Shown here one piece after another: positions 1,128 to 28,278 of a DNA stretch of 34,130 bases (position 1 is the stretch's first letter; each line of letters opens with the position of its first letter). This DNA is from a virus (Duplodnaviria > Heunggongvirae > Uroviricota > Caudoviricetes). The stretch lies in IMG/VR virus record IMGVR_UViG_2859799533_000006. One strand, written 5' to 3'. The translations under genes were made by a program, and so were the position numbers. The notes below the pieces were generated by a model. It was given only the letters and a program-made list of their open reading frames with translations. It ran no database searches and was not told the origin of the DNA.

Positions 1128-1157
1128 AAATGTCATGGCCGGATTATAAAAACGGCC

Positions 1158-2750
1158 ATGAATCAAAAATACCTCATTCGCATTGCAGAACTGGAATGCC
1201 AGCTCCGTCAGAAAGACCAGCAACTGAGTCTGGTTGAAGAGACGGAGGCCTTCCTGCGCTCTGCACTGGCCCGCGCCGAAGAAAAGATCGAAGAAGATGA
1301 ACGGGAAATAGAACATCTGCGGGCTCAGATAGAAAAACTGCGCCGGATGCTGTTCGGTACCCGTTCTGAAAAACTGCGTCGTGAAGTTGAACAGGCTGAG
1401 GCCCTGCTGAAACAACGCGAACAGGACAGTGATCGTTACAGTGGGCGGGAAGACGATCCGCAGGTTCCCCGCCAGTTGCGACAGTCTCGTCATCGTCGCC
1501 CGTTACCGGAGCATCTGCCCCGCGAAATAAATCGCCTGGAGCCAGAAGAAAGCTGTTGCCCGGAGTGTGGCGGTGAGCTGGATTATCTGGGGGAAGTCAG
1601 CGCAGAACAACTGGAACTGGTGAGCAGCGCTCTGAAAGTGATCCGCACAGAACGGGTAAAAAAAGCCTGTACAAAATGTGACTGCATCGTTGAAGCACCG
1701 GCACCATCCCGTCCGATAGAGCGTGGTATCGCGGGCCCGGGGTTACTTGCCCGCGTGTTAACGGGAAAATACTGCGAACACCTGCCACTGTATCGTCAGA
1801 GTGAAATTTTTGCCCGTCAGGGTGTCGAACTGAGCCGTGCATTACTCTCCAACTGGGTTGACGCGTGCTGCCAGTTAATGACGCCGCTGAATGATGCTCT
1901 GTACCGTTATGTGATGAACAGCCGCAAAGTTCACACTGATGACACACCAGTAAAAGTGCTGGCACCGGGCAGGAAGAAGGCGAAAACAGGATATATCTGG
2001 ACGTATGTCCGGGATGACAGGAATGCCGGTTCGCCAGAGCCTCCGGCGGTCTGGTTCGCCTACTCACCGGACCATCAGGGTAAACATCCGGAGCAGCACC
2101 TTAGTCCCTTCCGGGGTATCCTGCAGGCAGATGCGTTTAATGGTTACGATCGGCTGTTCAGTGCCGAACGAGAAGGCGGCGCGTTGACGGAAGCAGGATG
2201 CTGGGCTCATGCGCGGCGCAAAGTCCACGATGTATATATCAGTACCAAAAGCGCGACAGCGGAAGAAGCCCTGAAACTAATCGGTGAGCTGTACGCCATC
2301 GAGCACGAAATACGCGGGTTGCCGGTGTCTGAACGCCTGGCGGTCAGGCAAATGCAGAGTAAACCGCTACTGACTTCCCTGTATAAGCTGATGCAGGAGA
2401 AAGAACACACGTTATCGAAAAAATGCCGTCTGAGAGATGCGTTCCGGTATATCAGGAAGCACTGGGTTGCGTTGTGCAACTTCAGTGATGATGGTCTGGC
2501 TGAGGCGGATAATAATGCCGCGGAAAGAGCGCTTCGTGCAGTCTGTCTCGGAAAGAAAAACTTTATGTTCTTCGGCAGCGATCACGGTGGAGAGCGTGGT
2601 GCGCTACTGTACGGGCTGATCGGCACCTGCCGACTGAACGGTATCGATCCGGAAGCGTATCTGCGCTATATCCTGAGCGTACTGCCGGAATGGCCTTCCA
2701 ACCGTGTTGACGAACTCCTGCCATGGAACGTAGCACTCACCAATAAATAA
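1158..2750 (+). CDS. IS66-family transposase TnpC
   Basis: 530-aa ORF with N-terminal coiled-coil/leucine zipper, CPECGGEL and CTKCDC zinc-finger motifs and a C-terminal catalytic region, as in IS66-family transposases. Confidence 0.9.
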   Translation: MNQKYLIRIAELECQLRQKDQQLSLVEETEAFLRSALARAEEKIEEDEREIEHLRAQIEKLRRMLFGTRSEKLRREVEQAEALLKQREQDSDRYSGREDDPQVPRQLRQSRHRRPLPEHLPREINRLEPEESCCPECGGELDYLGEVSAEQLELVSSALKVIRTERVKKACTKCDCIVEAPAPSRPIERGIAGPGLLARVLTGKYCEHLPLYRQSEIFARQGVELSRALLSNWVDACCQLMTPLNDALYRYVMNSRKVHTDDTPVKVLAPGRKKAKTGYIWTYVRDDRNAGSPEPPAVWFAYSPDHQGKHPEQHLSPFRGILQADAFNGYDRLFSAEREGGALTEAGCWAHARRKVHDVYISTKSATAEEALKLIGELYAIEHEIRGLPVSERLAVRQMQSKPLLTSLYKLMQEKEHTLSKKCRLRDAFRYIRKHWVALCNFSDDGLAEADNNAAERALRAVCLGKKNFMFFGSDHGGERGALLYGLIGTCRLNGIDPEAYLRYILSVLPEWPSNRVDELLPWNVALTNK

Positions 2751-2840
2751 GCGTCAATACGGTGCTCCGTTGACGCTGATATGACTTTCCGTGTCAAACC
2801 GGAATCTCTAATTTTGACGATTTTCTTTTTAGGTTTAATT

Positions 2841-3023
2841 CCCTGAGGGCGACGTAGCAGTAAATCCGACGGTGAATCACGCTGATATTCGCGGGTTGGA
2901 TACCGCATTACAGAGGTCCGTCATATGAGCCTGCCACTTTCTTACGTCGCGAATCAGCTTTGTTCCGCCGTCGCCAAGCGCTAACGTGGGTTACTCTTGT
3001 ACCGGGCTACGTCGCCTTCAGGG
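2841..3023. repeat. 18-bp inverted repeat (17/18 match) closing a ~147-nt segment between IS66 tnpC and the IS110-family recombinase gene
   Basis: ccctgagggcgacgtagc (2841..2858) versus gctacgtcgccttcaggg (3006..3023); the single mismatch is a G-U pair if transcribed from the plus strand and a C-A mismatch from the minus strand. Confidence 0.7.
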
Positions 3024-3041
3024 AACTGGTTATTCTCATTT

Positions 3042-4169
3042 TTATTTGTGACATTGTGGTTGTTGTGCGACAGACATTGCTATTCGGCCCATATCCCAGA
3101 TAAAACCCGCCAGCTCACGTGCAACAGCAACAATTGTAATATTGACATTCTTTCCTTTGGCCTGAAGTTTTCGATACCTCTTACAAAGCCTGAGTTGAGC
3201 ATCCCATGCTCTGTCAATGACGGGGCGGGGTAAATTTTCCTGCCTTTTTTGTATTGCCGGACTGATGCGTGCCGGATGACGGTAACTCCACGCTGCCTCG
3301 ACCAATAGCTTTCTGGCATAGCTGTTTCCGGCTTTGGTAATGCTGCCCTGATGTCTGCTTCCACCCGATGAATATTCTGATGGCGTGATACCAAACCATG
3401 ACATCAGTTGTCGTGGATGTTCAAAACGGGTCAGATCACCCAGTTCAGAAATTAATCCAACCGCAGTAATAAACTGAATCCCTCGCATGGCTTGCAGCGC
3501 CTCTACTACCGGATACAGCCTCCATTCGGTAACGGCCTCCTTCAGGGCGGATTCCAGCCGTTCACATTGTGCCTGCCGGTCTTCTATTGTACGACGGTGT
3601 TCGTCAAAAGCTAATTGTCGCCAGGGACTTTCGAATGAGTATTTGCTGAGCCAGCGTCGGTGTGCAGGGCCCCAATCTGCTCGCCCGACATAATGGACCC
3701 CATGAACCAGAAGAAACGATTTCAGACGTTGCCTTGCATGCCGTAAATCATCGCGGGCAGATGCCCATGCCCGGGCCAAATCCCGGAATGCCTCATCTTC
3801 AATGCCGGGTACGTAGACAGCAGAAAGATCTCCTGCACGCAGTGAACGCACAAGTCTGATGGCATCACGGCGATCGGTTTTAACCCGCTCCCCCGGTTTT
3901 TTCGGGATAAGTGAGGGGGCGCAGACCATGCAGTCAAAACCGGATTTCACCAGCCGACGATAAAGTCCATAACCACAGGGCCCCGCTTCATAAACGATAC
4001 TGACCTGCGATGACTTTGACCTGAGACGTTTACAAAGATTCTGAATATCAGTAGGTGATGTGCCAATTTTACCCATCAGTTCAACAGGTTCTGAATTGAT
4101 AGCATAAGCGACAGTAATCGATTCTTTGTGAACATCTAACCCGACGTACAATGTGTTATTGTTGTTCAT
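3042..4169 (-). CDS. IS110-family transposase/recombinase
   Basis: 375 aa from MNNNNTLYVGLDVHKESITV (IS110-family N-terminal motif) with GGAGG 6 nt upstream of the ATG at 4169; the ORF track extends 16 codons further upstream to 4217. Confidence 0.85.
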   Translation of the reverse strand: MNNNNTLYVGLDVHKESITVAYAINSEPVELMGKIGTSPTDIQNLCKRLRSKSSQVSIVYEAGPCGYGLYRRLVKSGFDCMVCAPSLIPKKPGERVKTDRRDAIRLVRSLRAGDLSAVYVPGIEDEAFRDLARAWASARDDLRHARQRLKSFLLVHGVHYVGRADWGPAHRRWLSKYSFESPWRQLAFDEHRRTIEDRQAQCERLESALKEAVTEWRLYPVVEALQAMRGIQFITAVGLISELGDLTRFEHPRQLMSWFGITPSEYSSGGSRHQGSITKAGNSYARKLLVEAAWSYRHPARISPAIQKRQENLPRPVIDRAWDAQLRLCKRYRKLQAKGKNVNITIVAVARELAGFIWDMGRIAMSVAQQPQCHK

Positions 4170-4384
4170 GCTGGCCTCCGTGGTGGAAATACCGGGGTGT
4201 AGCAACAGCTCACCCATGCGGCTCTGACAACGATGTTAACCCGCGTTAAATATCCCACGTTGGCCAGCATCTGTCTCACGGAAAGTCATACTGCCTTACT
4301 ATCGTATTGATTGATCTGCATCAAATTAACGTAAAAGCAACTTCAGATAATACAAATCAGCAACACTGAATATGGGGAAACATT

Positions 4385-10533: not shown

Positions 10534-10869
10534 ATGAAGTGGATTGTGATTGATACAGTTATCCAGCCATCATGCGGAATATCTTTTTCAGTCATATGGA
10601 GTAAAATAAAATTAATAATCTGGTATCAATCGGATGCTTTCTTACCTCCTGAAAGTATATTTACACTGACTCACACAGGCATCATGCTCAATAACAAAGT
10701 GCTACCTGTAACCATTTACAACGTAGTACCATTCAATAAAACATTCTGGAATTTAATCAAAAACAGCCAGGAATGCCCTACAAATACAGATAACGTATTG
10801 AATGAATGCTTTAATAACCGTTGCACTCTGCAAATATGTCCTTATGGGCTAAAACAACAAAGTCCATAA
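10534..10869 (+). CDS. hypothetical protein in AT-rich cargo slot (stx-equivalent position), opposite strand to the late operon
   Basis: [25 protein letters not shown]... with AAGGA 7 nt upstream; very AT-rich context; several Cys near the C-terminus. Confidence 0.35.
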
Positions 10870-10903
10870 GGAGTTTACTCACATCTGACAAAATCAATAT
10901 AAA

Positions 10904-10925
10904 CAGCCCCTCCGGAGAGGGGCTG
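10904..10925 (-). terminator. rho-independent terminator (minus-strand transcripts)
   Basis: 9-bp GC-rich stem cagcccctc/gaggggctg with loop cgga; on the minus strand it is followed by a U-rich tract. Confidence 0.5.
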
Positions 10926-11158
10926 GAGAGTGGCGCTATGTGCCATTGCATGGTGCCGGGTGCCTCCCGGTGAATTCAGTACCAGCACCTGAATCTGCGA
11001 TTATCCCATATACCTACTCGCTGATTGCCCCTCCGCACAGGGGGATTCACCATGCCAGTTTCTTTTAACAAACTCCCCGCAAACCAGACAACAGTCAACC
11101 GCCTGAATTGTGAGACATTTAAAAAAAAGCCCGCAAAAGCGAGCCAGGGAAAATAAGT

Positions 11159-11235
11159 GTGGCGCGTTCTACTGTATTCGAACCAGTGACCGATTGCTTA
11201 GAAGGCAATTGCTCTGTCCGGCTGAGCTAACAACG
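11159..11235 (-). tRNA. argN: tRNA-Arg (anticodon UCU)
   Basis: Reverse complement gives a cloverleaf with anticodon loop CCTTCTAAG, T-loop TTCGAAT and CCA end; one acceptor-stem and one T-stem mismatch. Confidence 0.6.
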
Positions 11236-11251
11236 CAGGATACAGATAATG

Positions 11252-11326
11252 AACCGCCTTCGGGGACCCGAACTCCGCGCAACCAGCTTCGAAGGCTGGC
11301 GCTCTTTCCTGATGAGCTAATGGCGG
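11252..11326 (-). tRNA. tRNA-Arg-like (anticodon UCG), somewhat degenerate
   Basis: Hand-folded cloverleaf: D-arm gctc/gagc, anticodon stem ccagc/gctgg with loop CTTCGAA, T-loop TTCGGGT; acceptor 6/7 and T-stem 4/5 pairs; A58 replaced by G. Confidence 0.4.
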
Positions 11327-11333
11327 TATGTGA

Positions 11334-11409
11334 TGGTGGCCCTTGCTGGATTTGAACCAGCGACCTGGCGATTATGAGTCGCTCGCTCTCACCACTGAGC
11401 TAAAGGGCC
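11334..11409 (-). tRNA. ileZ: tRNA-Ile2 (anticodon CAU, ileZ-like)
   Basis: Reverse complement GGCCCTTTAGCTCAGTGGTGAGAGCGAGCGACTCATAATCGC...GGTTCAAATCCAGCAAGGGCCACCA closely resembles E. coli tRNA-Ile2; anticodon CAT. Confidence 0.8.
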
Positions 11410-11458
11410 GGGAGCAGAATAATAATGGTGCGTAATTAATTCTGCAATCTCATCCGTT

Positions 11459-12508
11459 TCAAACGATTAAATCCTGAACTTCCCTGACTGTCTGCTCAAA
11501 ACGTCCGGTCTCCAGTTCAACGCCAATCGCACGACGCCCGAGCGCCAGTGCCGCTTTTACCGTTGAACCTGAGCCCATAAAAAAATCTGCAACCTGGTCT
11601 CCCGGACGACTGCTCGCGTTGATTATCTGCTGCAACATTTCTGCCGGTTTTTCGCACGGATGTTTCCCTGGATAGTACTGCACCGGTTTATACGTCCACA
11701 CATCGGTGTACGGCACCTGCACCGTCACACCGAAATACCTCCGCAAATTTTTATATTCACTCAGCAGTTCCATATACTGCCGGCTCAGCTCACTGTATGT
11801 GCTGACCAGTTGGTAATGGGACTTTTCCAGTTCTCTCCGCTGATGTTTCTCTTCTGCCACCCGGGCAAACAGCGACTGTAATTTCAGATAATCGCTTTCG
11901 TTCGGTAGCTGCCACTGACTGGCACTGAACCAGTGCGACACCATGTTTTTCTTTCCTGTGGCATCTGCAATCTGTTTTGCCGTTATCCCCAGGGCAGCTC
12001 GCGCATCACGAAAGTAAGCAATCAGCGGGGCCATCACATTCTGTTTCAGTACCCTGCCCTTCGCCTCATAGCCATCATCTTTCGGGCGGTACGGCCCCTG
12101 ATAATGTTCCGCGAACAGAATGCGCTCTGTGGCGGGGAAATACGCCCGCAGGCTTTCCTTGTTGCATCCGTTCCAGCGTCCGGACGGCTTCGCTCAGATA
12201 ATATGGTTCAGCACACTGAAGCGTTCACGCATCATGATTTCGATATCAGATGCCAGGCGATGACCACAGAACAGGTAAAGACTTCCGGCAGGTTTCAGCA
12301 CCCGCCAGAACTGCGCCAGACACTGCTCCAGCCACTTCAGGTAATCATCGTCGCCCTTCCACTGGTTATCCCAGCCCTCAGGCTTCACTTTAAAGTACGG
12401 CGGGTCCGTGACTATCAGGTCAACAGAATTTTCGGGTAACGACCGGATAAATTCCAGGCAGTCGGCGTTGATTAACTCACAACTGGATATTTTTACAGTA
12501 TTAAGCAT
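11459..12508 (-). pseudogene. phage DNA N6-adenine methyltransferase (DPPY motif) interrupted by an in-frame TGA at 12194..12196
   Basis: N-terminal ORF has LIVTDPPYF; reading continues in the same frame across TGA (...SVLNHII-TGA-AKPSGRWNG...KQNVMAPLIAYFRD...), about 350 codons in total. Confidence 0.8.
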
Positions 12509-12658
12509 GGATCATTAAGCCTGTCTCTGATAGGCTCATTCTGCTTTTGCGCAAAGCAGTGGGCCTGAGGTTTGCTTGTGAACCCAACGCATGAGCAGAT
12601 GGCTGGTGGGTGCCCCTAACACCCACCAGCCGCCCATTTACCACAAATAAAAAAGCCT

Positions 12659-12856
12659 TCACTGCGGAAGGCGTCTGTAACAACCGAACTGATAGTCTGC
12701 CAGACCCGCCATAACCAGCTGGGTCAGTATTAACTGGCAGCGTTCGCGTGAAAGGTAAGTATTCTGCGCTATCTCCCCGACTGTCGCCGGTTCGGTAACG
12801 CTTAATTCATTAAACACCACTCTGGCGGTTTCTGTCATATCCTGCTGTTTTAGCAT
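12659..12856 (-). CDS. small putative DNA-binding (winged-helix-like) protein between Q and the methylase
   Basis: MLKQQDMTETARVVFNELSVTEPATVGEIAQNTYLSRERCQLILTQLVMAGLADYQFGCYRRLPQ with AAGGGA RBS; HTH-like segment. Confidence 0.4.
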   Translation of the reverse strand: MLKQQDMTETARVVFNELSVTEPATVGEIAQNTYLSRERCQLILTQLVMAGLADYQFGCYRRLPQ

Positions 12857-12978
12857 GTCTTTTTCCCTTTTCCGGTTAACGTGACACACCAATAACTCTT
12901 GTCGAAAAAGCCAGCAAGCTGAAAGACAGGTATTCACCGCCACCAGCGCGTTTACTGTACTGACGCGATTTCAGTCAT

Positions 12979-12999
12979 AAAAAAACCGCCAGGCGGCGG
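12979..12999 (-). terminator. rho-independent terminator about 85 nt downstream of Q (tR'-like)
   Basis: Minus-strand hairpin ccgcc-gcct-ggcgg followed by T7; this position downstream of Q is where lambdoid tR' lies. Confidence 0.5.
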
Positions 13000-13082
13000 G
13001 GTGTAAAAAATCTTCTAACGTCAGGCATAAAACGCCCATCATTAGAGCAAATTTACCACAGATTCGGGAAAAATCAACAACA

Positions 13083-13556
13083 CTATCGCGTTACCCTCTT
13101 TAACTGCCGCTCCGCCCATGCCTCTTCAATGTCAAACCGAACCACCAACGTATCGTAAAAGCGTTTCACTGATTTTTTCCACGTATCAAGCGTGATAGCA
13201 CTCGTCACTTTGCATATGGCATTAAATGCCTCCGTTGATGGTAGTCTTTCACAGCCACGACCACCACAACGCTGGCAGTCTCTGATAACAGGCATACCAC
13301 GTTTTACCGACTCTTCACGATGAATGGCGACACCACGCCCACGGCAATCCTTACAGGCGGTGGAAACCTCACCCTTTCCGCCACACTCCGGACAGGCAAC
13401 TTTTACCACCTCCCTGACTTTTTTCCATTCTTCCCAGTAAGACGGATACACGCCTTTTGTGCACTTTGCCCACACTGGTGGCTTACCATCCGGATACTGG
13501 ATCTTGTTTGTAAAAACCTCGCTTTCAATAAATTTTTTCCGTGACAGCAGGGGCAC
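13083..13556 (-). CDS. Q: late-gene antiterminator Q (zinc-finger part); has only a GTG start and is probably the 3' part of a frameshifted longer Q gene
   Basis: CPECGGKG...CKDCRGRG zinc-finger motifs; sits upstream of tR' and the tRNA trio; no ATG start, and overlaps the upstream ORF by 154 nt. Confidence 0.6.
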   Translation of the reverse strand: MPLLSRKKFIESEVFTNKIQYPDGKPPVWAKCTKGVYPSYWEEWKKVREVVKVACPECGGKGEVSTACKDCRGRGVAIHREESVKRGMPVIRDCQRCGGRGCERLPSTEAFNAICKVTSAITLDTWKKSVKRFYDTLVVRFDIEEAWAERQLKRVTR

Positions 13557-13903
13557 TGTTTTTTGCTCGCCGCGCTACGGGCATAATCTTCAAACGCATA
13601 CGAAGCCATAATGCGCATCACTACCGGTTTTATTTCTGCCGGAAGTTTTCTCAACGCCGCCACACGATCGCACCGACTGAGTGCATAATCTGCCAGTAAT
13701 TCTGTTGCCCGCGCCCTGTCATTCATACTGATGCCCATTTTCCCCAGGAACGCAGAAAACCCCATCTCAGCCCGATTCTGTGTCATGCCCTGCGCGGCCA
13801 TCACATCAGTGATACTCAGCGCATCTTTTGACGTTGAGGCCGATGCATCGGTCAGGCTAGGGGATTTTGGGGAGTAGTATTTCGGTAAATCTTCCAGTTT
13901 CAT
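13403..13903 (-). CDS. ORF upstream of and overlapping Q; likely the N-terminal part of the same Q gene displaced by a 1-nt indel in an A6 run
   Basis: MKLEDLPKYYSPKSPSL...RIMASYAFEDYARSAASKKQ then low-plausibility tail; two A6 runs (plus-strand T6 at 13533..13538 and 13559..13564) lie at the frame switch. Confidence 0.4.
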   Translation of the reverse strand: MKLEDLPKYYSPKSPSLTDASASTSKDALSITDVMAAQGMTQNRAEMGFSAFLGKMGISMNDRARATELLADYALSRCDRVAALRKLPAEIKPVVMRIMASYAFEDYARSAASKKQCPCCHGKNLLKARFLQTRSSIRMVSHQCGQSAQKACIRLTGKNGKKSGRW

Positions 13904-14274
13904 TTTTTGACCTGCTCTTCATGCATTATGGGGTAAATCTTCACCCCCATACGTCCACCAGATACTGGCTGACCACGAACGATATTGATTTCATCAAACT
14001 GCTCATCGTCCATTAACACTCCCGCATGCGTCAGCGCATCCAGCGGTGCTTTCAGGATATTGTCCAGGTCGCGACGACGCTTATCCGGTGGCTCTGCAAT
14101 CACCTTTATCGCCAGCCTTCCGGACAGGCTTAATTTCAGCCGCTGCTGGCGAACAATAAGCGCCACAGCCCGGCGATAACGCTTTCCCTCCTCCGAGATA
14201 AAATATGTGCTGCCACGGCGTCGCCAGTAAGTGTTCACCGTCGGCGGGTAAGGTAAAACCAAATCTATGAGCAT
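13900..14274 (-). CDS. rusA: Holliday junction resolvase RusA
   Basis: 124 aa with RusA signature (LPYPPTVNTYWRRRG...DKRRRDLDNILKAPLDALTHAGVLMDDEQ). Confidence 0.9.
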   Translation of the reverse strand: MLIDLVLPYPPTVNTYWRRRGSTYFISEEGKRYRRAVALIVRQQRLKLSLSGRLAIKVIAEPPDKRRRDLDNILKAPLDALTHAGVLMDDEQFDEINIVRGQPVSGGRMGVKIYPIMHEEQVKK

Positions 14275-14286
14275 CAGTCACCTCTT

Positions 14287-15282
14287 TTACCCAAGCACGC
14301 CAGTTGCAAAGGCGTGATCAAGAAAACGAAAAATTAAATCAACCTGAGAACCATGCTTTTCTTCGAACGCCAGAGGATCCGCATGAAGCTCGTTGTGATG
14401 CTCCCGACACAGCGGTAGCGTGAAAATATCGTGAGATTTTGTCCCCATTCAGCCCTGACCATGACCAATCAGGTGATGGGGATCGTCGGCTGGCTTACCA
14501 CAACACGCACACGGCTGTGTCTTCACCCAGCGTGTGTATTTCTCGTTAACCCAGCGGCGACGTTTTGGGCGTAACATAAAAGACTCCGGCGACTCCGGAT
14601 CCACTTTCAGCGCCAGCACCTTTTTCGCCTTATCCTGGATGATGCTGGTGGCAGGAACCGAAGGCACAAGGTCACTTTCCCGGGTGACAGACGGCACAAC
14701 AGGCTTCGGTAATCTCAGTGCCTTACGGGCTGCACTTTCCGGTAAGGCATCCGCCAGGTCATTACGAATCAGCCACCAGCACAGTTCCGGCATTGTCACA
14801 ACGTGACTGTCATCAAAACCGAGATCCCGACGCACAACAGACAACACCCAGCGGGCACAGTTATCCGTTGCCATTGATTCCAGCCGTTCCGTGAACTGGT
14901 CACGGAGAAGATTGTCACAGTGCCAGCACAGACGGATTGCGCCTGGCGCGTGCCGCATTGTGGTCATGTTCTCGCTGTGCCAGTCGGAATGAGGCCACTG
15001 ACAGCCCTTTTCACGAAGTAACCAGCTCTCAAGGCATTCCACGCCACCAGCACGACGGATCACCGCCTCATGGCGGAACACGGCCCGAACGGCAGGATCA
15101 TCCGCCAGCGGTTGTGATGCTGCCGGAACGGCACCGCTGGCGAAAGATGAATAACGTTCCGGCTCAGGCTCCAGCAGGACACGCCCCTGCATAAACAGGG
15201 GCATCAGCTCTGAACCGGGCCTGAACAATACAATCCCCATTCGCGGGGCAATTTCAGGAGTCAACAATGCTCTCACGGTCAC
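14287..15282 (-). pseudogene. prophage DUF968-like protein with C-terminal HNH-like zinc motif, interrupted by an in-frame TGA at 14449..14451
   Basis: Frame reads ...CACCGKPADDPHHLIGHGQG-TGA-MGTKSHDIFTLPLCREHHNELHADPLAFEEKHG...-TAA; the Cys/His motif is split by the stop. Confidence 0.65.
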
Positions 15283-15328
15283 CTCAGCGAACGATATTGC
15301 ATGAACGCAGGAGAAAAAAATTCAGCCA

Positions 15329-15586
15329 TCACGCAGTAAACTCCTTCACCAGCGTTTCAAACTGGCTTACCTGGCCTTCCAGTTCCGCCACGCAATCCAC
15401 CAGCTCATCCACCGCCTTTTGTGTACGGTGTTTTGCCTGCAGCAGATCACGAAGCGCCGGAGTAAGCTGCTTGCGGAGCGTATCTTTTGCCACGCTCGTT
15501 TTTTCCATCTGTTCAGCACAACGAAGCATCTCCTGCGCCTGCCGACGAAGTTGTTCCGGTGAAACAGTGATTGTTCTGTTGTTCAA
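15329..15586 (-). CDS. hypothetical coiled-coil protein
   Basis: 85-aa ORF with its start overlapping the helicase gene stop (ATGA); no recognisable motif. Confidence 0.4.
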
Positions 15587-16984
15587 AATAAACGCTCCGT
15601 TTTACTGCCCGACATGCGGTTATTGCTGTATCTGCGCGGATTGCCCGGCGTCATGGGTGTGGAAAGAACCCGGGCACTCTCCTGGTCCACAGGCAGAAAA
15701 TGTCCGTTATGAAAACGCCGGTAAATGGTCCCGAGCGTGCCATTACGCTGTTTCGTGATGTTGATTTCTGCTATGCCTCTGGCCTGAGTTTCCGGGTTGT
15801 ATACCTCATCCCTGTAAAGCATCAGAATGATGTCGGCATCCGCCTCGATTTCCCCGGAGTTTTTCAGGTCCGAGTTCATTGGGCGTTTATTGGGTCTGGA
15901 TTCCACGCCGCGGGAGAGCTGGCTCAGAGCAATCAGCGGAAAACCGCCGGATTTTGCCAGGCTTTTAAGTCCCTTTGAGATTTCCCCCACCGCAAGGTCG
16001 TGACGCCCCGTACTGCGGGTTTTAATCAGGCCGAGGTAATCGACCACCACCAGCGCCGTTTCCGGGTGTTTCATCCGGTGGTGCTTCGTGGTTGCACATA
16101 TCTCATCAATGGGTCAGGTTTGCCTGGTCCACCATCCAGATATTACGCCCCGTCATTCGTCCCACGCCCTGCGAGAAACGCGCCCAGTCTTCATCTTCAA
16201 AACGGGCAACAGACTTAAGACGGGATACCGGCATTCCACCGGCAGCAGACACCATACGTTCACCAATCTGGATGTTCGCCATCTCCATGGTGAACAGAAG
16301 CACGCCATGCCCCTGCTCAGTCACCTTGTCGATGATGTCCAGCGCAAGTTCGGTTTTCCCCATCGAAGGACGGGCGGCAATGAATACCAGGTCTCCGGGC
16401 TCCATACCGCCCGTTTTTGCGTCCAGTTCATCAATACCGGTCATCAGCGCCCTGGATTTCTCCAGTCCCTGATTGCGGCATTCAACACGGTCGACCACTT
16501 CCAGAAGGACATCATCAATGTGAACCGGCTGAATGACGCCCTTTCCGGTCGACAGTGAGGCCATCATGTTCTGCACATCCTTCAGGGCATCCTCGGCTGC
16601 TTCACAGGTATACGCATCACGTAAATTCTGTAATGCTTCAGTCAGTGTTTTTTCTGCATCGCGCAGTGCGGCATTGCGCCGCAACGCTGCGACATAGTGC
16701 TCCAGTGAAGACTTCACCCAGGTTTTGCGTCCGGTGTCGGTAATCACCGGGGCAAGTTCCGGCATCTCATTGCACAGCAGTACGGGGTCAATGACGCCGG
16801 ATATGCGAGCCTGTCTGCAAATCCCCGCGTAAATATCCCGGTACTGACGCACAAAAAATACATCCGCCGGAAGTGTGGCCAGAATATCCATCACTTCCGG
16901 ATCGGCCCCACGCAGAAAAAACGCACCGATGACAGCGCCTTCCAGGTCATCGTTACGCCATGCCGGGGTGTTCTGGCTGGTCAT
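15583..16984 (-). pseudogene. DnaB-like replicative helicase, frameshifted near 16106..16116
   Basis: N-terminal ORF ends ...[14 protein letters not shown]-stop; the +1 frame continues [31 protein letters not shown]... with RecA-fold motifs ([28 protein letters not shown]); switch at a C-run. Confidence 0.8.
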
Positions 16985-17868
16985 GCGGCAACACCTCCGA
17001 TACGAGAACGGTAGCTGGGCCAGTTAAACGACAACCAGTTGCGCCCGCCATCGGTGATCCTGTCGGCAATCCGGGGACTGATGAACGCCCACAATTCTTC
17101 CGGTGAAAGATTGCTGATCAAGATAGTTGGCAAAATACCCTCATACCGGGCATTGATAATTTCCTGCAAAATGGCCATTTCAGCCGCACTGCCAAACTGA
17201 ACGCCGACTTCGTCGACAATCAGCAAATCCAGTGACGCATAATGCTCAATGACGTCATCCGCTGTTTTTTCACTGTCATTCCGCCAGCAGTTTTTCACAG
17301 CCCGGGTAAGGCGCATCACGTCGGTGATCTCCACACTGGCCAGATAGTTACGGATGATGTGTTTTGCCATTGATACCGCCAGATGATTTTTCCCGGTACC
17401 GCAACTGCCGGTCATAACAAGACTGGTACCGTTCTCCAGCATATCTGGCCAGTTCTCCGCATAGCGGCGACAGGCCGCAAGATTTCTGGCTGCGTCAGGA
17501 TTAACCTCCAGATAATTATCAAACTCGCAGTCCCGAAAACGCAGAGCAATTCCGGCGTTATCAGTCAGTTCTTCCGCCTTGAGGGACGACAGTTCCATGG
17601 TCAAATAACTGGCCTCAGCGATCAAGCAGTCAGGGCAGCATGAAATTTTTTCTCTGTCCTCGCCATTACGATCGCTCCACACCAGTATATGCGTACGATA
17701 TTTACCGTGTTTTTCGCAATATCCGCGACCTTCACGCATCAGGCAGGAACGATAAGGCCATGGCTTTTCGCCCTTCTGAGCAAATGCAATCTCTGCCCGT
17801 AACTCATCCATTCGCGCCTGTAGTCTTGTTTGTTTCTCACGTTGGTCAATCGTCATCATCGCTGTCAC
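16981..17868 (-). CDS. DnaC-like helicase loader (AAA+ ATPase)
   Basis: 295 aa with Walker A TGSCGTGKNHLA and Walker B LLIVDEVG; overlaps the helicase start. Confidence 0.85.
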   Translation of the reverse strand: MTAMMTIDQREKQTRLQARMDELRAEIAFAQKGEKPWPYRSCLMREGRGYCEKHGKYRTHILVWSDRNGEDREKISCCPDCLIAEASYLTMELSSLKAEELTDNAGIALRFRDCEFDNYLEVNPDAARNLAACRRYAENWPDMLENGTSLVMTGSCGTGKNHLAVSMAKHIIRNYLASVEITDVMRLTRAVKNCWRNDSEKTADDVIEHYASLDLLIVDEVGVQFGSAAEMAILQEIINARYEGILPTILISNLSPEELWAFISPRIADRITDGGRNWLSFNWPSYRSRIGGVAA

Positions 17869-17869
17869 C

Positions 17870-18860
17870 TCAGAATGTCAATTTGTTACTGGATTTACCG
17901 AATTTGTCAGACATGGCTCCCAGGCCAGCCAGGACATCAACCTGTCGCTGTCGCCCACCTCCGTGAGCGGCTGGCTGTTGCCAGTAATCTTCGAAGTGAC
18001 GATCGGGTCCAAAGAACGTCGCAGCCTGCTTCACGAACTGTGTGCCGGTATTTCCTGTAGCACGTACCCAGGCGGCATACCGCTTCACGCCATCAAGCAT
18101 GGTCTCCGGTTTTATTCCTTCCCTGATACGGGCTTTCCAGGCTTTGAAGGCTGCTGACTTGGAATTGCCACCAGCACGTTTGGGATATTCCTGCCAGGCC
18201 TGTTCAAATTCCGGTGAATATTCCTGTCGGGCAGAACGCGCTGGCGCAGACGCGTCAGCGGATGCATCAATAGTGTTTTTAGTCTCCGTTGTAATCTCTG
18301 TAGTAATCTCTGTATTTGTATCAACATTCGGCGTATCCCTGTTCCGTTATGACGTCGGGGGTGTTCCGTTTTAACGTAATAGCTGTATCGCTGATTGCAT
18401 TATTGCTGTTACTTTCTGGCGAAACAGAAGAAGGTGTGGTGATGGCCGCAATTGCCTGTGGGTTGATCCCGACAAACAAAATATTGCTGCATTTCACCCC
18501 ATCGAGCATTTCCACCGTGCGTAAATCCAGAGTAATAAACCCTGCATCGCGCAGACGCTTCAGCGCATCTGCGGTTTCCCTTTTCCCGAAACCAAACTGC
18601 TCAGCAAACGCCTGGTAGCTTCTTTGCAGTTTGTCGCCCTGAAAACGCTTGCGATATCCCAGCAACGCTCCGGTGTGCTCATCCCTGACCTCTGTCGGGC
18701 GGTACCAGTAAACGATCTCTGAAAGCAGAGCGATAGCCGTCGCATCCGGACGCCCACTGGGTAGTCGAATATATTTCCACCAGTTCGCAGGTGTAACATT
18801 GCCGGAAATATTAATTTGACCAATAGCCATAACTTCCGGTGTGGGGGCGTAACGGCTCAT
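17870..18860 (-). pseudogene. phage replication initiator (O-like), frameshifted near 18337 at a GGG run; contains an in-gene tandem repeat
   Basis: N-terminal ORF 18321..18860 ends ...DVITEQGYAEC-stop; the +1 frame continues DTPNVDTNTEITTEITTE...EYSPEFEQAWQEYPKRAGGNSK...MLDGVKRYAAW... to 17870; 12-bp tandem gtaatctctgta x2 at 18291..18314. Confidence 0.6.
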
Positions 18861-19156
18861 ACAACCTCCTTCCGCGGCATGAGAATTGTGTAGCCACGCG
18901 CAGGTTGTAGTCTGGCTTTTGCATCAATAGTAAGCGTTGCAATTTTTCGGATATGAAGATAACCAGCTCTTTCCAGTGCCAGGGTTTCCCTGAATATCGC
19001 TTGCTTAGAACAACAGCAGAAATCAGCAAGCACCTGATGATCAATAACTCTCTCGCCTTCACCGTCTGAAGAACCCGACATCAAAACACGCAACATAATC
19101 AGGCGCTGAATCGGGTTATCGAAAGCACATCCGCACACAAACTGAAAACAGTTCAC
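18857..19156 (-). CDS. putative HTH regulatory protein, translationally coupled to the initiator gene
   Basis: 99-aa ORF with HTH-like segment SKQAIFRETLALERAGYLHI; stop overlaps the downstream start (ATGA). Confidence 0.45.
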   Translation of the reverse strand: MNCFQFVCGCAFDNPIQRLIMLRVLMSGSSDGEGERVIDHQVLADFCCCSKQAIFRETLALERAGYLHIRKIATLTIDAKARLQPARGYTILMPRKEVV

Positions 19157-19377
19157 GCCACACCTCCCAGACGCTTAAACATTTTTCCAGACAGAAATAC
19201 CGCCAGAGGGTAACTGATGGTGTAGCTACGCCCCTGTAGTTCGCACACGACTTTCTGGCTTTCAGCGTTGACTAGGCAAACCCGCAGAACGTGACCGTTG
19301 CTGGTGGCGAACCACTGCCCCACACGGGGGCAACGGTTGTATCGGTGATACAGGGAATTAACGATGTGGCGGATCAT
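19153..19377 (-). CDS. hypothetical protein (coupled operon member)
   Basis: 74-aa ORF with ATGA overlaps on both sides. Confidence 0.4.
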   Translation of the reverse strand: MIRHIVNSLYHRYNRCPRVGQWFATSNGHVLRVCLVNAESQKVVCELQGRSYTISYPLAVFLSGKMFKRLGGVA

Positions 19378-19568
19378 GGACGCACCTCCACCGTAGTTAC
19401 GTATTTAACCGGGCTACCTTTCATTGAGATGGTTTCACACATCTCTGCCGCTTTCAGTTCCGCTGTTTTTCTGGATTTATAGCGACGGTGCCAGACAGAT
19501 ACATCCGTGCGAACTGATACATCGTTTCTGTATTCCGTAGTGGAGATGATGATTTCGTAACTAATCAT
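19374..19568 (-). CDS. hypothetical protein (coupled operon member)
   Basis: 64-aa ORF overlapping the rha stop and the next start by 4 nt. Confidence 0.4.
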   Translation of the reverse strand: MISYEIIISTTEYRNDVSVRTDVSVWHRRYKSRKTAELKAAEMCETISMKGSPVKYVTTVEVRP

Positions 19569-20116
19569 GGGCGAACCTCCTTGTCAGAACCATTCAGCCT
19601 GGAATCAACAAGTGCAGCGCCAAAAACAGCATCACCAACACGGTCGTACAGTTTGCTAGCCAGCGGAGATTCAACGGCCTTAAGCATTGGATAAAGCTGG
19701 CTTGTCCAGATTTGATGGATTTCACGCAAATGCAGGTATACGCCTCTGGCGTTTCGTGCGACAGCTGACATATCAACCGCGTCAGCACCAGATAAATTCT
19801 TCTCCATCTGGTTAAAGGCGTTGATGTATGCCTCTTTGAACCGGGCTGCACGTTTGCCAGTAAAGCCCATAGCAAGGAACGCGAAGCCATCGCGGGTGAT
19901 TTGATAGCAAGGTAGTTTGCGGCCTGTGCAATCGGTGTAATCACTGGGCTGAAAATTCAGCTCAGTGAATTCAACAGAGCACTCAAGCGTCTGGATTTTT
20001 TGAATAACGTTTTTGTGCTGCTTGCAGAAATATTCGGCAACGGCCAAAGAAGAGGTAACAGCCTTCCCATGGATAACATCAATTTTAGGGTGAGTTTGGG
20101 TAGGGGTGGTTGCCAT
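19565..20116 (-). CDS. rha: phage regulatory protein Rha family
   Basis: MATTPTQTHPKIDVIHGKAVTSSLAVAEYFCKQHKNVIQKIQTL...FTELNF...YQITRDGFAFLAMGFTGKRAARFKEAYINAFNQME matches the Rha N-terminal domain; GAGGA RBS 9 nt upstream of the ATG at 20116. Confidence 0.8.
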   Translation of the reverse strand: MATTPTQTHPKIDVIHGKAVTSSLAVAEYFCKQHKNVIQKIQTLECSVEFTELNFQPSDYTDCTGRKLPCYQITRDGFAFLAMGFTGKRAARFKEAYINAFNQMEKNLSGADAVDMSAVARNARGVYLHLREIHQIWTSQLYPMLKAVESPLASKLYDRVGDAVFGAALVDSRLNGSDKEVRP

Positions 20117-20280
20117 AGTGACATCCTCATGTGCGAATTTTGAAAACTCACCACATGGGACGCCAATCACAGAGGTGGTGAGACGTACAGGGTTGGCGTA
20201 ACCGGTCGCACATGACCCCGGCGCATCTTTCGATGCCCCTGCACGCCCCACCATAATTTGGATGTGAGGAAACGTGCGCA

Positions 20281-20303
20281 AAAAAACCGCTGAAGCGCGG
20301 TTA
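20281..20303 (-). terminator. putative rho-independent terminator upstream of rha (minus strand)
   Basis: Minus-strand hairpin aaccgcg...cgcggtt followed by T7. Confidence 0.45.
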
Positions 20304-20521
20304 TGCGCATGTGCGAATTTCAGGACGCCAATCCCGGCACCCGCTTTATAAGGTGCGGAGACAGTGTAACGTCCCGAAATTGCAGAATCAATATTTGGTC
20401 TTGAAATGATCATATAGCTGCTGATATCTTTAGAACTGTTCTTGGATGTTTCGGAGCCGTTTTATGCGAAACAGCTCCCCGTTATTGATGTTGAGTGAGC
20501 CGGGTTACTCCCGGCTTTTTT

Positions 20522-21229
20522 TCACCGCTGCCAACCAATAACCTGAAATAACCCCATTTTCGGGTGATACCAGCGAGTCCCTCGCGGTTCTGCTTCCTCC
20601 ATAACCCGATAAAAAGCAGCCATAAACGGTTCCACAGCAACAATTGCGCGACGTGACAACAATCTGTCCGGCGTCATGAACTCATGGGTGTCTGTAGGAA
20701 TTTGATAGGCGTTCACCAGATTGCGGCATTTATCATCTGACAAACCGGTTTTTGCTTTCAGTTGGCGATATCCGGCATAGCCCTCACGAATAGTGCCCTT
20801 TTTAATTTGCTCGACTGTTTCAGCAACGTGGCTGACTTTTTCTTCCACCTGAGTGATCCGTTTCTGTTGGCGAACGGCTTCAAGAGCCATCGCGGCAACC
20901 ATTTCGATTTCGCTCATTGGCTTACGGATCTGTTCTTCCAGTTCGCGCCAGCGATCTACCAGGCGAGCTGTGAATTCAGGACAGAGCTGTGCGACGACAA
21001 TGATGCTGTCGCGCTTACCTCGTTCACCTTCGAATACATACGCGCTAGAAAATCGGCGAGGCCCAAGTGATTGTTTATTCTCAATTTCCACAGTCTGTGG
21101 AAATTGGATGATTCCCTTTTTAGCCAGTGTTTCAATAGTTCTCTTAACACTATCTGGTCGGCTTCCCACCAGCTCTGCGATCTCAACGCTGGTCATGGAT
21201 GCTTTGCCGTTAAAAATTGCGGTGTTCAT
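20522..21229 (-). CDS. phage DNA-binding regulatory protein (Rha/ORF6N-like antirepressor type)
   Basis: 235 aa; N-terminal MTSVEIAELVGSRPDSVKRTIETLAKKGII HTH-like region and coiled-coil middle; first large gene of the rightward operon. Confidence 0.55.
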   Translation of the reverse strand: MNTAIFNGKASMTSVEIAELVGSRPDSVKRTIETLAKKGIIQFPQTVEIENKQSLGPRRFSSAYVFEGERGKRDSIIVVAQLCPEFTARLVDRWRELEEQIRKPMSEIEMVAAMALEAVRQQKRITQVEEKVSHVAETVEQIKKGTIREGYAGYRQLKAKTGLSDDKCRNLVNAYQIPTDTHEFMTPDRLLSRRAIVAVEPFMAAFYRVMEEAEPRGTRWYHPKMGLFQVIGWQR

Positions 21230-21453
21230 TGTTGGTCTCCTGTGGGCTTGTCATCTTCTGTATTCGCTAGCCTTGGGTGTGTATATGGAATGCTCGGATC
21301 CAGATGACAAAGAATGGCAACATCCTCCGGAACACCTCGCGTTTTCCACTTTCCAACACCTTGACTGCCACGAGGCCTTCCTTTCTTTGGGAACCTGCGA
21401 CCAATAGCGGCATTGGTTTTAAATTGAATTTTTAATATTTCATAAAGGGTCAT
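21226..21453 (-). CDS. small basic protein at the cro position (possible Cro analogue; not a typical HTH)
   Basis: 75-aa ORF divergent from the repressor gene, coupled by ATGA to the next gene; contains a basic GRPRG (AT-hook-like) segment. Confidence 0.35.
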   Translation of the reverse strand: MTLYEILKIQFKTNAAIGRRFPKKGRPRGSQGVGKWKTRGVPEDVAILCHLDPSIPYTHPRLANTEDDKPTGDQQ

Positions 21454-21564
21454 TCTTTAGTCTCACACCAGATACTTTGTTATTCAACGATGTTAACCGC
21501 GGGATTCCAAAGTATCAAGAAATTCTGTTACTTTCGTATCAACAGCCATGAGAGGAGAAGAAAA
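21454..21564. promoter_or_regulatory. divergent promoter/operator region between the repressor gene and the rightward operon
   Basis: 110-bp intergenic region with the repeated motif CAAAGTATCAA (21507..21517), an inverted partial copy gatactttg (21470..21478) and a related tactttcgtatcaac (21528..21542). Confidence 0.5.
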
Positions 21565-22221
21565 ATGAAGTCTTTAGGTGAACGTCTCATCAACGCACGG
21601 CAAAAAGCTGGGTTAACACAAGATGCGTTGGCTAAAAAAGCTGGGATCACCAGAGTTGCAATCAGTAAAGCCGAGCAAGGCCTTACAAAAAGTTTCAACG
21701 GTGACACCCTTTTTAAAGTTGCAGCTGCACTGCGGTGTTCACCGCAGTGGCTTCAGAACGGAGATGAAAAAGATAAGCATTGGGAAAATAATGTTAAGAG
21801 CTGCCCACAGAGAGACACAGCACACTCTTACCCTGTAATTAACTGGGTTCAGGCAGGATTATTCGCAACTTCTGGTGATGACTACAACATGTATGATCAG
21901 GATAATTGGAGGCATTCTGTAAAATACGCTGGTGAGAGGGGGTTCTGGCTGGAAGTGCACGGAGACTCAATGACTTCGCCCGTAGGAATAACATTTCCTG
22001 AAGGAATGTCGATCCTTGTCAACCCAGATAAAGAAGTTTTTTCAGGGTGTTACGTCATCGCCAGAAAAAAATCCACCAATGAAGCAACATTCAAAAAATA
22101 TATTTCTGACATGGGAAAGGCGTTTCTAAAGCCCCTTAATCCACAATATCCAATCATAGAAATGGACAATGATTGCGAAATAGTAGGTGTTGTGGTTGAT
22201 GCCAGGTGGGATATTTTCTGA
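21565..22221 (+). CDS. cI: CI-like repressor (HTH plus LexA/S24 peptidase domain)
   Basis: MKSLGERLINARQKAGLTQDALAKKAGITRVAISKAEQG (HTH) followed by an S24-like domain with GDSM (Ser) and a conserved Lys; GAGGAGAAG RBS. Confidence 0.85.
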   Translation: MKSLGERLINARQKAGLTQDALAKKAGITRVAISKAEQGLTKSFNGDTLFKVAAALRCSPQWLQNGDEKDKHWENNVKSCPQRDTAHSYPVINWVQAGLFATSGDDYNMYDQDNWRHSVKYAGERGFWLEVHGDSMTSPVGITFPEGMSILVNPDKEVFSGCYVIARKKSTNEATFKKYISDMGKAFLKPLNPQYPIIEMDNDCEIVGVVVDARWDIF

Positions 22222-22246
22222 CCAGACACAAAACACAAAAAGAAAC

Positions 22247-22323
22247 CAAAGTATCAAAATCACTTGCCACACCTTGACACCTTAGTTACCATAAAACAAA
22301 GTTCGTAACTGAGGTATCATCTC
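22247..22323 (+). promoter_or_regulatory. putative operator plus promoter downstream of cI
   Basis: Third copy of CAAAGTATCAA at 22247..22257, then TTGCCA-N17-TACCAT ahead of the 22324 ORF. Confidence 0.35.
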
Positions 22324-22827
22324 ATGATCAATAAAGCTACAACTCTTGACTGTCTCGAAGAACTGAAAAACCTCGGCAGCCTCATTACACTAATAGCAAA
22401 AGCAACACCTGATGCTACACTCTCTAGCGATATAGAGTCATGCGCAGGACTGGCATGGGATATGACAAATAGCATATCCAGAAAGCTATCGTCAGCAATG
22501 CTTTTACAGAACAAAAATTCTGCAATCAACAACCGTCTTCGCACCCAACGCGAAGCCTGCGGCTTAACAACCGCCGAACTCGCCAGGCTGCTCGATCTCG
22601 ATGAAGAAATTATCATCCAGTGGGAGAGCGGAGAGTATGAACCAACTATCAGTATGCTTATCCCACTGGCAAATATTCTTGGCTGCGATCCGATGTGGCT
22701 GTTAACTGGTGAGGTTACTCCTCCGGAGCAACCAAAAAGTGAGGAGCAGCAACACCATGACGCATCTCAACAAGTTTGCCCCTTATCTCGCGAAGCTCTT
22801 CTGCGGAAGAACCAATACCAATGGTGA
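22324..22827 (+). CDS. XRE-family HTH protein at the rex-equivalent position
   Basis: 167 aa; central HTH (LRTQREACGLTTAELARLLDLDEEIIIQWESGEYEPTISMLIPLANILGCDPMWLL). Confidence 0.55.
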   Translation: MINKATTLDCLEELKNLGSLITLIAKATPDATLSSDIESCAGLAWDMTNSISRKLSSAMLLQNKNSAINNRLRTQREACGLTTAELARLLDLDEEIIIQWESGEYEPTISMLIPLANILGCDPMWLLTGEVTPPEQPKSEEQQHHDASQQVCPLSREALLRKNQYQW

Positions 22828-22975
22828 CATAATCGCCGCTTCGCCCTTCAAGGTACATGCGAACATTTTTATCAATCATTGCGGAAACAGTCTCAATATG
22901 AAAACACTTCTGAGACTCGCTATATAGCAGAACATATAAGTCAGCTGAGGAAGCCATGAAAAAGTTCGAAAACAT
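22715..22975 (-). CDS. hypothetical protein (antisense/convergent; uncertain)
   Basis: 86-aa ORF with GGAGAA RBS 6 nt upstream of its ATG; overlaps the 3' end of 22324..22827 and the 5' end of 22956..23321. Confidence 0.35.
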   Translation of the reverse strand: MFSNFFMASSADLYVLLYSESQKCFHIETVSAMIDKNVRMYLEGRSGDYVTIGIGSSAEELREIRGKLVEMRHGVAAPHFLVAPEE

Positions 22976-23321
22976 AACTGTTCTCCATGTTGATGACTTT
23001 GATTATACAAACCCGGAACTTCTCCCGGAGGTTGTAAAGGCAATAGATGTTGCCGATATAGTGATTAGAGAAAAGAGAATTGTCAAAAACAGGCTCGCAT
23101 GCACTTCAGGAGCAATGACAGAAACAACCTCACAGCAAGATAATTACGAAGGCATTTGTCTGGAGCCTGATTCATTTGCGGTAAATGTTTATCATTTATT
23201 GCATGCAACACAGGTATTACATATGTCCAGTAATCACGAAACGAAAACACTCGGCAGCGAAATTCTGAGTTTTGCATGTGAGTATACAAAAGCTGCTGCC
23301 GAAAAAGAATTAGCGCAATAA
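22956..23321 (+). CDS. hypothetical protein
   Basis: 121-aa ORF MKKFENITVLHVDDFDYTNPELLPEV... with GAGGAAG RBS. Confidence 0.45.
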   Translation: MKKFENITVLHVDDFDYTNPELLPEVVKAIDVADIVIREKRIVKNRLACTSGAMTETTSQQDNYEGICLEPDSFAVNVYHLLHATQVLHMSSNHETKTLGSEILSFACEYTKAAAEKELAQ

Positions 23322-23448
23322 CAACAAATATGCCCTGAACGTTTATTGCGGTTTTATCGCCGGGGATTGTTACAACCTTAATCCGCAGGAGGCTTTATTG
23401 TGACTTTTATAAAGAATATGGCATCACACAAGACCGCTGGATTTGCCC

Positions 23449-23756
23449 CTATATTTCCAGACATCTGTTATCACTTAACCCATTACAAGCCCGCTGCCGC
23501 AGATATTCCCGTGGCGAGCGATAACCCAGCGCACTATGCGGATGCCATTCGTTATAATGCTCGAACGCCTCTGCAAGGTTCTTTGCTGCCGTTAACCCGT
23601 CTGGTTTGGGCATGATACTGATGTAGTCACGCTTTATCGTTTTCACGAAGCTCTCTGCTATTCCGTTACTCTCCGGACTCCGCACCGCCGTGTTCTTCGG
23701 TTCAAGTCCCAACATCCGGGCGAACTGGCGTGTTTCATTAGCCCGGTAGCATGAAC
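23449..23756 (-). pseudogene. insD: IS2 transposase InsD, 3' fragment
   Basis: ORF 23449..23715 encodes the InsD C-terminus ([31 protein letters not shown]...); separated from the 5' part by IS629. Confidence 0.85.
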
Positions 23757-23798
23757 TGAACCGCCCCGGGTTTCCTGGAGAGTGTTTTATCTGTGAAC

Positions 23799-24689
23799 TC
23801 AGGCTGCCAGATCATCGTTTCCGATGGAAGCATAATAAGCTTTTTCTGCTTCTGCCGGAGGAGTATGGCCCAGCCTTTCCAGCAATCGTCGATTGTTATA
23901 CCAGTCCACCCACGTGAGTGTGGCCAGTTCCACTTCTGCACGGTTTTTCCAGCTCTTACGGTGTATTACCTCCGCTTTGTAAAGACCATTGATGCTCTCC
24001 GCCATCGCGTTGTCATACGAGTCGCCTGTACTTCCTGTTGATGCCAGTAATCCGGCTTCCTTAAGCCGCTGTGTGTAGGCCAGCGATACATACTGAGAAC
24101 CTTTATCACTGTGATGGACCGTGCCGGACGGTCGACGGGCCCATAACGCCTGCTCCAGAGCATCCAGCACGAATGTCGTTTCCATGGACGATGAGACCCG
24201 CCACCCCACGATGTATCCGGCAAACACATCAATGATGAACGCCACATAGACGAAGCCCTGCCATGTGCTGACGTAAGTAAAATCAGCCACCCACAGCTGG
24301 TCAGGTCGTTCTGCCACGAACTGACGGTTTACGCGGTCGCCTGCGGCAACGGCTTTCCGGCTGATGGTCGTACGGACCTTTTTACCCCGGAGAACACCGG
24401 CAAGTCCCATAACCGCCATGAGACGTGCCACAGTGCATCTGGCCACTCTGATACCTTCCCGTAACAACTGACGCCAGACTTTACGCACACCGTATACCTG
24501 ATGATTCCCATCGTATACGCGCAGTATCTCTTTCTTCAGCCAGTCATCGCGCTGCGCACGGGCACTGCGTTTATCAGGATGATGTCGCTGTTGCTGACAG
24601 TGGTAATACGTTGACGGGGCAATATGCAGTTCACTGCATACCGGTCCGACCCCGTACAGCTTACGCAGCTTATCCAGCAGTGGCATCAC
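23799..24689 (-). CDS. IS629 transposase OrfB (DDE integrase domain)
   Basis: 296-aa ORF with the IS3-family catalytic region; overlaps orfA in the arrangement for a -1 frameshift fusion. Confidence 0.9.
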
Positions 24690-25012: not shown

Positions 25013-25066
25013 CCTGTTTACCTCTTTCTCAGGAAGTTTAGTCTCCAGGATTCCCGGGGCGGTTCA

Positions 25067-25990: not shown

Positions 25991-26164
25991 CTGTACTCCA
26001 ATGACTAGTCTAAAAACTAGTATTAAGACTATCACTTATTTAAGTGATACTGGTTGTCTGGAGATTCAGGGGGCCAGTCTAACCGCCTGCCTTATTGCAC
26101 AATACGGTGAAAATTACATGCATATTGCCTGCTTATTTCTGCGTAAAGCATACGGGAGATAATA

Positions 26165-28242: not shown

Positions 28243-28278
28243 GCCCCGGGTTTCCTGGAGAGTGTTTTATCTGTGAAC

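Follow-up and report, generated by a model that had tools for sequence, protein, structure and literature searches.

The question raised by this locus is whether the antiterminator Q region of a tailed-phage sequence encodes two proteins or one broken one and, if it is broken, whether the break is a genuine mutation. The stretch analysed (IMG/VR record IMGVR_UViG_2859799533_000006, 34,130 nt, below called the window) carries two overlapping reading frames at this place. A preliminary description had left two options for them, a Q pseudogene or a sequencing artefact. The evidence presented here makes it very probable that this lambda-type Q, part of a degraded lambdoid prophage in Shigella boydii, is a true pseudogene that has lost its function.

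Organization of the Q locus

All features that had been described for the locus were seen on the minus strand: two frames, the upstream ORF (N-part) and the zinc-finger Q ORF (C-part), overlap by 154 nt (13403-13556; Table 1). The C-part lacks an ATG start, as was noted earlier; the earliest ATG in its frame is codon 88, and no Shine-Dalgarno motif or ribosome-binding site was found at its GTG. A TAG at 13575-13577 shuts the C-part frame upstream and any join of the frames is therefore confined to 13403-13574. The same stop codon explains why the interval in the preliminary description ended at 13577. Two A6 runs lie within the possible join interval. According to a prefix/suffix computation, the N-part consists of 123 native residues followed by a 43-aa out-of-frame tail, and the C-part of 6 non-native codons followed by 151 native residues. 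The native residues of the N-part comprise the equivalent of residues 1-113 of the lambda protein (Qλ) plus the first CxxC, and the native stretch of the C-part contains three CxxCxGxG motifs and the second half of the Q body. The overlap is not a chance arrangement, because each ORF alone matches PF03589 and the joined product aligns end to end with one 273-aa protein that thousands of genomes encode.

Table 1. Position of the Q pseudogene and associated features in the window.
Feature	Position	Strand	Remarks
Whole Q antiterminator pseudogene	13083..13903	-	821 nt, compared with 822 nt (273 aa) in intact homologues
N-part ORF	13403..13903	-	166 aa, ATG start; ORF listing and direct reading
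C-part ORF	13083..13556	-	157 aa, GTG start; ORF listing and direct reading
First A6 run, unchanged	13559..13564	-	A6 in intact genes too; not the lesion
A6 run, site of the 1-nt deletion	13533..13538	-	A7 in intact genes; frame changes after Lys123
PR'-like late promoter and sigma-dependent pause element (putative)	13038..13077	-	Just after the Q stop codon; alignment with lambda PR'
PR'-like -35, TTGATT	13072-13077	-	Alignment with lambda PR'
PR'-like -10, TAAATT	13050-13055	-	Alignment with lambda PR'
-10-like pause element, AATGAT	13038-13043	-	Alignment with lambda PR'
Intrinsic terminator (predicted)	12978..12999	-	CCGCCGCCTGGCGG then T run; terminator scan; ca. 50 nt downstream of the PR'-like start
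IS-bearing segments	361-4217, 23753-26035, 28235-29548, 31177-31854, 33744-34130		IS66, IS110, IS3 copies and fragments, IS1

Intact relatives and family membership

A megablast comparison of the 871-nt region with 5,426 complete E. coli genomes showed that 80% or more of it is present in 2,478 of them. Among the 2,498 matching records, the 39 full-length matches listed are uniformly 872 nt long, one base more than the query. The listed E. coli matches are annotated as one 822-nt 'antitermination protein' with RusA adjoining. Q is a single 822-nt CDS of 273 aa in both NCCP15648 and O157:H7 (Z1836), and isolated phages also carry the long Q as one ORF, for example Escherichia phage Evi with 96.7% protein identity at 100% coverage. 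The comparison with Q proteins of about 250-270 aa that had been proposed at the outset thus gives a single 273-aa Q in the homologues, whereas the window has lost 1 nt, in agreement with the first of the two options, a Q pseudogene. The homologues do not encode two distinct proteins, and there is no unrelated gene upstream of the GTG.

A two-gene arrangement, with the N-part and C-part as separate functional proteins, might be suggested by the output of gene callers, which give two ORFs that each match PF03589. The listed homologues, however, are a single CDS, apart from a few that are marked 'frameshifted'. Furthermore, the N-part ends in the 43-aa out-of-frame tail, the C-part has no ATG start but a GTG that is not preceded by a ribosome-binding site, and the Q body needs segments of both halves (PMC9388147). 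We consider the chance that the locus encodes two working proteins to be close to nil.

The repaired protein matches PF03589 ('Antiterm') with an E-value of 2e-49 and 166 bits (cut-off 26.7), and the separate ORFs match with E-values of 2.6e-22 (N-part) and 8.2e-28 (C-part). The match of the repaired protein with Qλ (PDB 7UBM) has an E-value of 1.2e-38. In this alignment residues 1-113 of Qλ pair with residues 1-113 and residues 116-207 pair with residues 182-273 of the repaired protein; the CKDC (184) and CQRC (210) motifs are located within the block aligned to the zinc-ribbon region of Qλ. The alignment thus extends across the torus segment, both body halves and the zinc-ribbon CxxC pairs. 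As is typical of the Q family, the gene directly precedes a PR'-like late promoter, which has a -10-like pause element and is followed by a terminator. What the window copy lacks is one uninterrupted frame for the whole protein, due to the 1-nt deletion. Since its reading frame is interrupted, we classify the window Q as a pseudogene of the PF03589 family and not as a functional member.

Lambda Q (PDB 4MO1, 7UBJ-7UBN; PF03589) belongs to the same family and occupies the matching genomic place, downstream of the nin/RusA region and followed by a PR'-like promoter, a pause element and a terminator. It has CRDC and a CxRC where the repaired window protein has CKDC and CQRC. Lambda Q is 207 aa long, whereas the intact form of the window-type protein has 273 aa, with a 68-aa insertion where the arm begins (residues 114-181) that carries two extra CxxCxGxG motifs. 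The window copy differs from lambda Q additionally by being frameshifted. With the insertion (window ca. 13360-13565, minus strand) the repaired Q has four CxxCxGxG motifs, at residues 117, 171, 184 and 210, and shows a weak match to the DnaJ central domain (E 2.7e-6), which is below the Pfam cut-off. A solved structure that covers the 68-aa insertion was not found. The long form of Q is common; it occurs in ca. 46% of complete E. coli genomes and in some Stx2 phages.

The intact 273-aa long-arm Q is represented by WP_000762880.1 (NCCP15648), WP_000762904.1 (O157:H7) and the protein of phage Evi. The intact Q gene of NCCP15648 is 99.4% identical to the window at the DNA level. The copies of NCCP15648 and O157:H7 share their neighbours with the window, namely DUF968, RusA, Q, a 65-aa ORF, the methyltransferase and tRNAs. 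The long-arm copies have an A7 tract and a single open frame, whereas the window has A6 and two overlapping frames.

Site and nature of the lesion

The relatives read CACGG-AAAAAAA-TTTATT where the window reads CACGG-AAAAAA-TTTATT, and this is the sole gap in a three-way alignment. The change from A7 to A6 is also the only net indel over 3.4 kb in comparison with strain NCCP15648. Among the fetched loci, the lesion tract is A7 in all 34 full-length intact (822-nt) copies. The preliminary description had proposed that the frames join at either of the two A6 runs. This was correct for the second run, which is A7 in homologues, but not for the first, which is also A6 in intact genes (33 of the 34 fetched copies; in the 34th it did not match the search pattern). 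A join at the first run was ruled out on this ground. In a single case, protein P0002 of one read-set contig, it is the first run that has lost a base and reads A5.

Apart from the indel, the window Q differs by one SNP from its nearest intact allele, which is present in L028, an IMG/VR contig. The lesion consists of the loss of one A from an A7 homopolymer, for which replication slippage is the most plausible cause. A ribosome that starts at the native ATG is predicted to leave the Q frame after Lys123, to read 43 unrelated codons and to stop at the N-part stop codon (13403-13405).

Evidence that the deletion is genuine

A look-up of the exact 166-aa N-part product retrieved two complete genomes (CP026866.1 and CP026867.1) and two drafts (LPTS01000149 and LPTH01000267), along with read-set assemblies known from at least 20 samples and from 5 samples. 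Over 16.5 kb, the window and CP026866.1 do not differ in a single base (100% identity). Six further loci of the lineage (L004-L009) all have A6, with a Q gene that is identical throughout. The exact proteins of the window carry the name Shigella boydii in their sources.

If the break were a sequencing or assembly artefact, Q would be intact in the real genome, with A7, and the homopolymer would have been miscalled. A 1-nt homopolymer change is indeed a classic type of error. CP026866.1, the assembly of the window itself, also departs from close relatives by single homopolymer bases at two other places, 18337 and 18357; these disrupt an ORF that has its full 330 aa in CP026867.1 and LPTS01000149. 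Some indels may thus be specific to the CP026866.1 assembly. Against this, the identical A6 is present in two complete genomes, two drafts and at least 25 independent read-set samples, and neighbouring genes are inactivated by base substitutions, which are not a product of homopolymer errors. The occurrence of the same A6 allele in many independent assemblies leads us to reject the artefact, the second option of the preliminary description, as highly improbable. The Q deletion is genuine, and both the lesion and its distribution over the lineage are direct observations.

The region around the two other homopolymer differences showed several changes relative to L028: C6 to C5 at 18357, G4 to G3 at 18337, and a 12-nt tandem duplication at 18291-18302. 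The minus-strand ORF at 18321-18860 is split into 179 and 76 aa in the genome of the window, compared with 330 aa in CP026867.1 and LPTS01000149. Either mutations of this strain or errors of the CP026866.1 assembly may account for the differences in 18291-18357.

PR'-like late promoter and predicted terminator downstream of Q

Alignment with lambda PR' revealed a putative late promoter with a pause element immediately behind the Q stop codon (Table 1). The core GGTAAATTTG..TC.AA.GATGGG is common to the window and lambda PR'. A consensus promoter scan did not call this promoter, and its assignment therefore rests on the lambda alignment. The sequence of the -35/-10 spacer, which in lambda is the location of the Q-binding element, is not conserved in the window. 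The terminator at 12978..12999 would be the barrier for Q to override. Two SNPs (minus strand) were noted in this region. The pause element reads AATGAT in the window and AACGAT in NCCP15648 and lambda due to a SNP at 13041, and at 12985 the window has a T after the terminator stem where NCCP15648 and L028 have a G, making the T run longer.

Predicted effect on Q function

The Qλ structures show a torus (residues 1-44) inserted into the RNA-exit channel, a DNA-binding body of four helices to which residues 61-113 and 153-207 contribute, and a zinc-ribbon arm of residues 114-152 (PMC9388147). Mapped on the Qλ alignment, the break after residue 123 separates the two body halves and takes the zinc-ribbon arm from the N-part. 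The N-part product would retain the torus segment and, of the four-helix body, the first half, but neither the arm nor the second body half. The C-part has no credible start signal and its product would be devoid of the torus and the first body half. Because the break splits the body halves and removes the zinc-ribbon arm, neither fragment should work: neither is expected to bind the Q-binding element or to load onto RNA polymerase. From these structure-function data on Qλ we infer that antitermination is lost. Transcripts from the PR'-like promoter, which like the pause element and terminator has been retained, should then end at the terminator (12986-12999), leaving the downstream tRNAs, methyltransferase, esterase and lysis cassette without Q-dependent read-through. 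The Q gene itself shows no secondary decay as a sign of long-term disuse, being one SNP away from the nearest intact allele.

Functional Q could still be formed if the frames were reconnected by -1 frameshifting on A_AAA_AAT or by transcriptional slippage on the A6 run. The 0-frame sequence GG[A AAA AAT] fits the slippery pattern X XXY YYZ, and the native protein would be restored exactly by a -1 shift. Slippage of transcription at long A/T runs is known in Shigella, but efficient slippage generally needs 8-9 or more A's and only six are present here. More than 99% of the homologues are A7 and in frame; the split arrangement is derived and not conserved. The 93 nt downstream fold with -20.6 kcal/mol (z -0.52), which is no better than shuffled sequences, and there is no Shine-Dalgarno-like stimulator within 20 nt upstream. 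Of the features that mark a programmed -1 frameshift, the locus thus has the slippery heptamer in the 0 frame, and neither a stimulatory structure or SD-like element nor a conserved two-frame layout. Programmed frameshifting was ruled out for lack of a downstream structure and conservation of the split arrangement. The prophage is also otherwise defective, and we regard a Q kept functional by recoding as highly unlikely. It is possible that a trace of full-length Q would arise via a -1 shift on A_AAA_AAT, judging from the heptamer.

Recurrence of the deletion

A 48-nt query was built to seed only on A6 alleles. It detected A6 in two of the 5,426 complete E. coli genomes, MLI104K2 and UM146. 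In IMG/VR, 2 contigs have A6 and 73 have A7, and overall the A6 (OFF) alleles make up ca. 0.1-3% of the copies. The exact A6 pattern gave zero matches in a collection of species-representative genomes. The same break was also found in an O157-type background (P0005). Each A6 lineage is 0-1 SNP away from an A7 allele and 2-5 SNPs away from other A6 lineages. The proximity to A7 alleles and the small number of A6 copies show that the Q deletion is recurrent but rare.

In UM146 (UM146_RS25440) and MLI104K2 (NL420_RS13955) the lesion is identical to that of the window, with an 821-nt gene and the same A6 tract, and PGAP, the annotation pipeline of NCBI, already marks both genes as 'frameshifted'. 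The events in these two strains are independent of that in the window, as they occurred on slightly different alleles, and unlike in the window the neighbouring DUF968 and methyltransferase genes are intact.

Repeated loss of the same base could point to a contingency switch, in which the A7 tract toggles Q reversibly between ON and OFF as a form of regulated bet-hedging. The same A7 to A6 deletion indeed occurred independently in at least three backgrounds; there is the additional O157-type background (P0005), and in P0002 the deletion is in the other run. However, the OFF state is rare (2 of 5,426 complete E. coli genomes, compared with 2,478 that hold the gene, and 2 versus 73 IMG/VR contigs), and seven bases are short for a contingency tract. 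Moreover, all sampled copies of the S. boydii lineage are A6, with no mixture of lengths. The frequent ON/OFF length variation among close relatives that characterizes a phase-variable locus was not seen. The switch was rejected because OFF alleles are too rare, and we rate it as exceedingly unlikely. A looser version, in which the A7 tract, located where the Q arm begins, is a mutational hot spot (at least 3-4 A7 to A6 events) that acts as a crude and occasionally reversible OFF switch for the late genes, and slippage leak would leave the S. boydii Q attenuated and not dead, is also very unlikely. A genuine loss-of-function mutation that recurs at low frequency is the explanation that we adopt.

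Decay of the prophage and order of events

Several other genes of the prophage are broken, all on the minus strand. The DUF968 gene (14287-15282) has a GGA (Gly) to TGA change at 14449-14451 that splits it into 277 and 53 aa. In the DNA methyltransferase gene (11459-12508) the TGG codon of Trp105 has become TGA at 12194-12196, which splits a 349-aa N6/N4 enzyme. The DnaB-like helicase gene (15583-16984) has a frameshift at ca. 16074-16106, giving pieces of 292 and 163 aa. The exact 104-aa fragment of the methyltransferase is found on 134 contigs, and the 292-aa helicase fragment, named 'helicase [Shigella boydii]', on 131 contigs. The IS load is heavy, with transposases of the IS66, IS110, IS3 (two identical copies) and IS1 families in the window. 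Beyond the lysis cassette, no head or tail genes were seen in the window.

The closest copy with an intact Q, L028, is colinear with window positions 10619-23756 at 99.3% identity. It contains both the DUF968 stop codon and the helicase frameshift, whereas codon 105 of its methyltransferase is TGG and its Q tract is A7. Since L028 has these two lesions and an intact Q, the Q deletion is a late step that followed the DUF968 stop and the helicase frameshift. A late date fits the contig counts: the exact Q N-part protein is recorded on 6-11 contigs, far below the 131-134 for the fragments of the helicase and the methyltransferase. These lower counts suggest that the Q lesion is younger than the other two and that it may be fixed in only a sub-lineage.

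Some further observations concern the surroundings of these genes. The IS3 copy at 23753-25066 is absent from L028, and one IS3 copy apparently lies between two Ead/Ea22-like ORFs (27788-28276 and 29777-30313). Downstream of the methyltransferase a cluster of three tRNAs (11160-11409, minus strand) has a CAT anticodon, Arg-TCG and Arg-TCT; the CAT-anticodon tRNA is called Met in the window and is annotated as tRNA-Ile in RefSeq relatives. This is the usual late-region cluster of this type of lambdoid prophage.

Decay of genes in cryptic prophages is a general phenomenon in E. coli K-12 and Shigella. Like the window, such prophages lose their genes step by step through frameshifts, nonsense codons and IS insertions and retain the immunity and early regions. 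The window has nothing distinctive in this respect and is one more example.

Implications

The Q locus is a biologically ordinary pseudogene of a known family. In annotations, its pair of overlapping ORFs should appear as a single frameshifted pseudogene of Q and not as two genes, and the lesion provides one dated step in the decay of a cryptic prophage of Shigella boydii. The tRNA cluster, the esterase and the lysis cassette are predicted to be no longer under Q-dependent transcription. That unrelated E. coli lineages have suffered the same deletion marks the A7 tract as a weak spot of this variant of Q.
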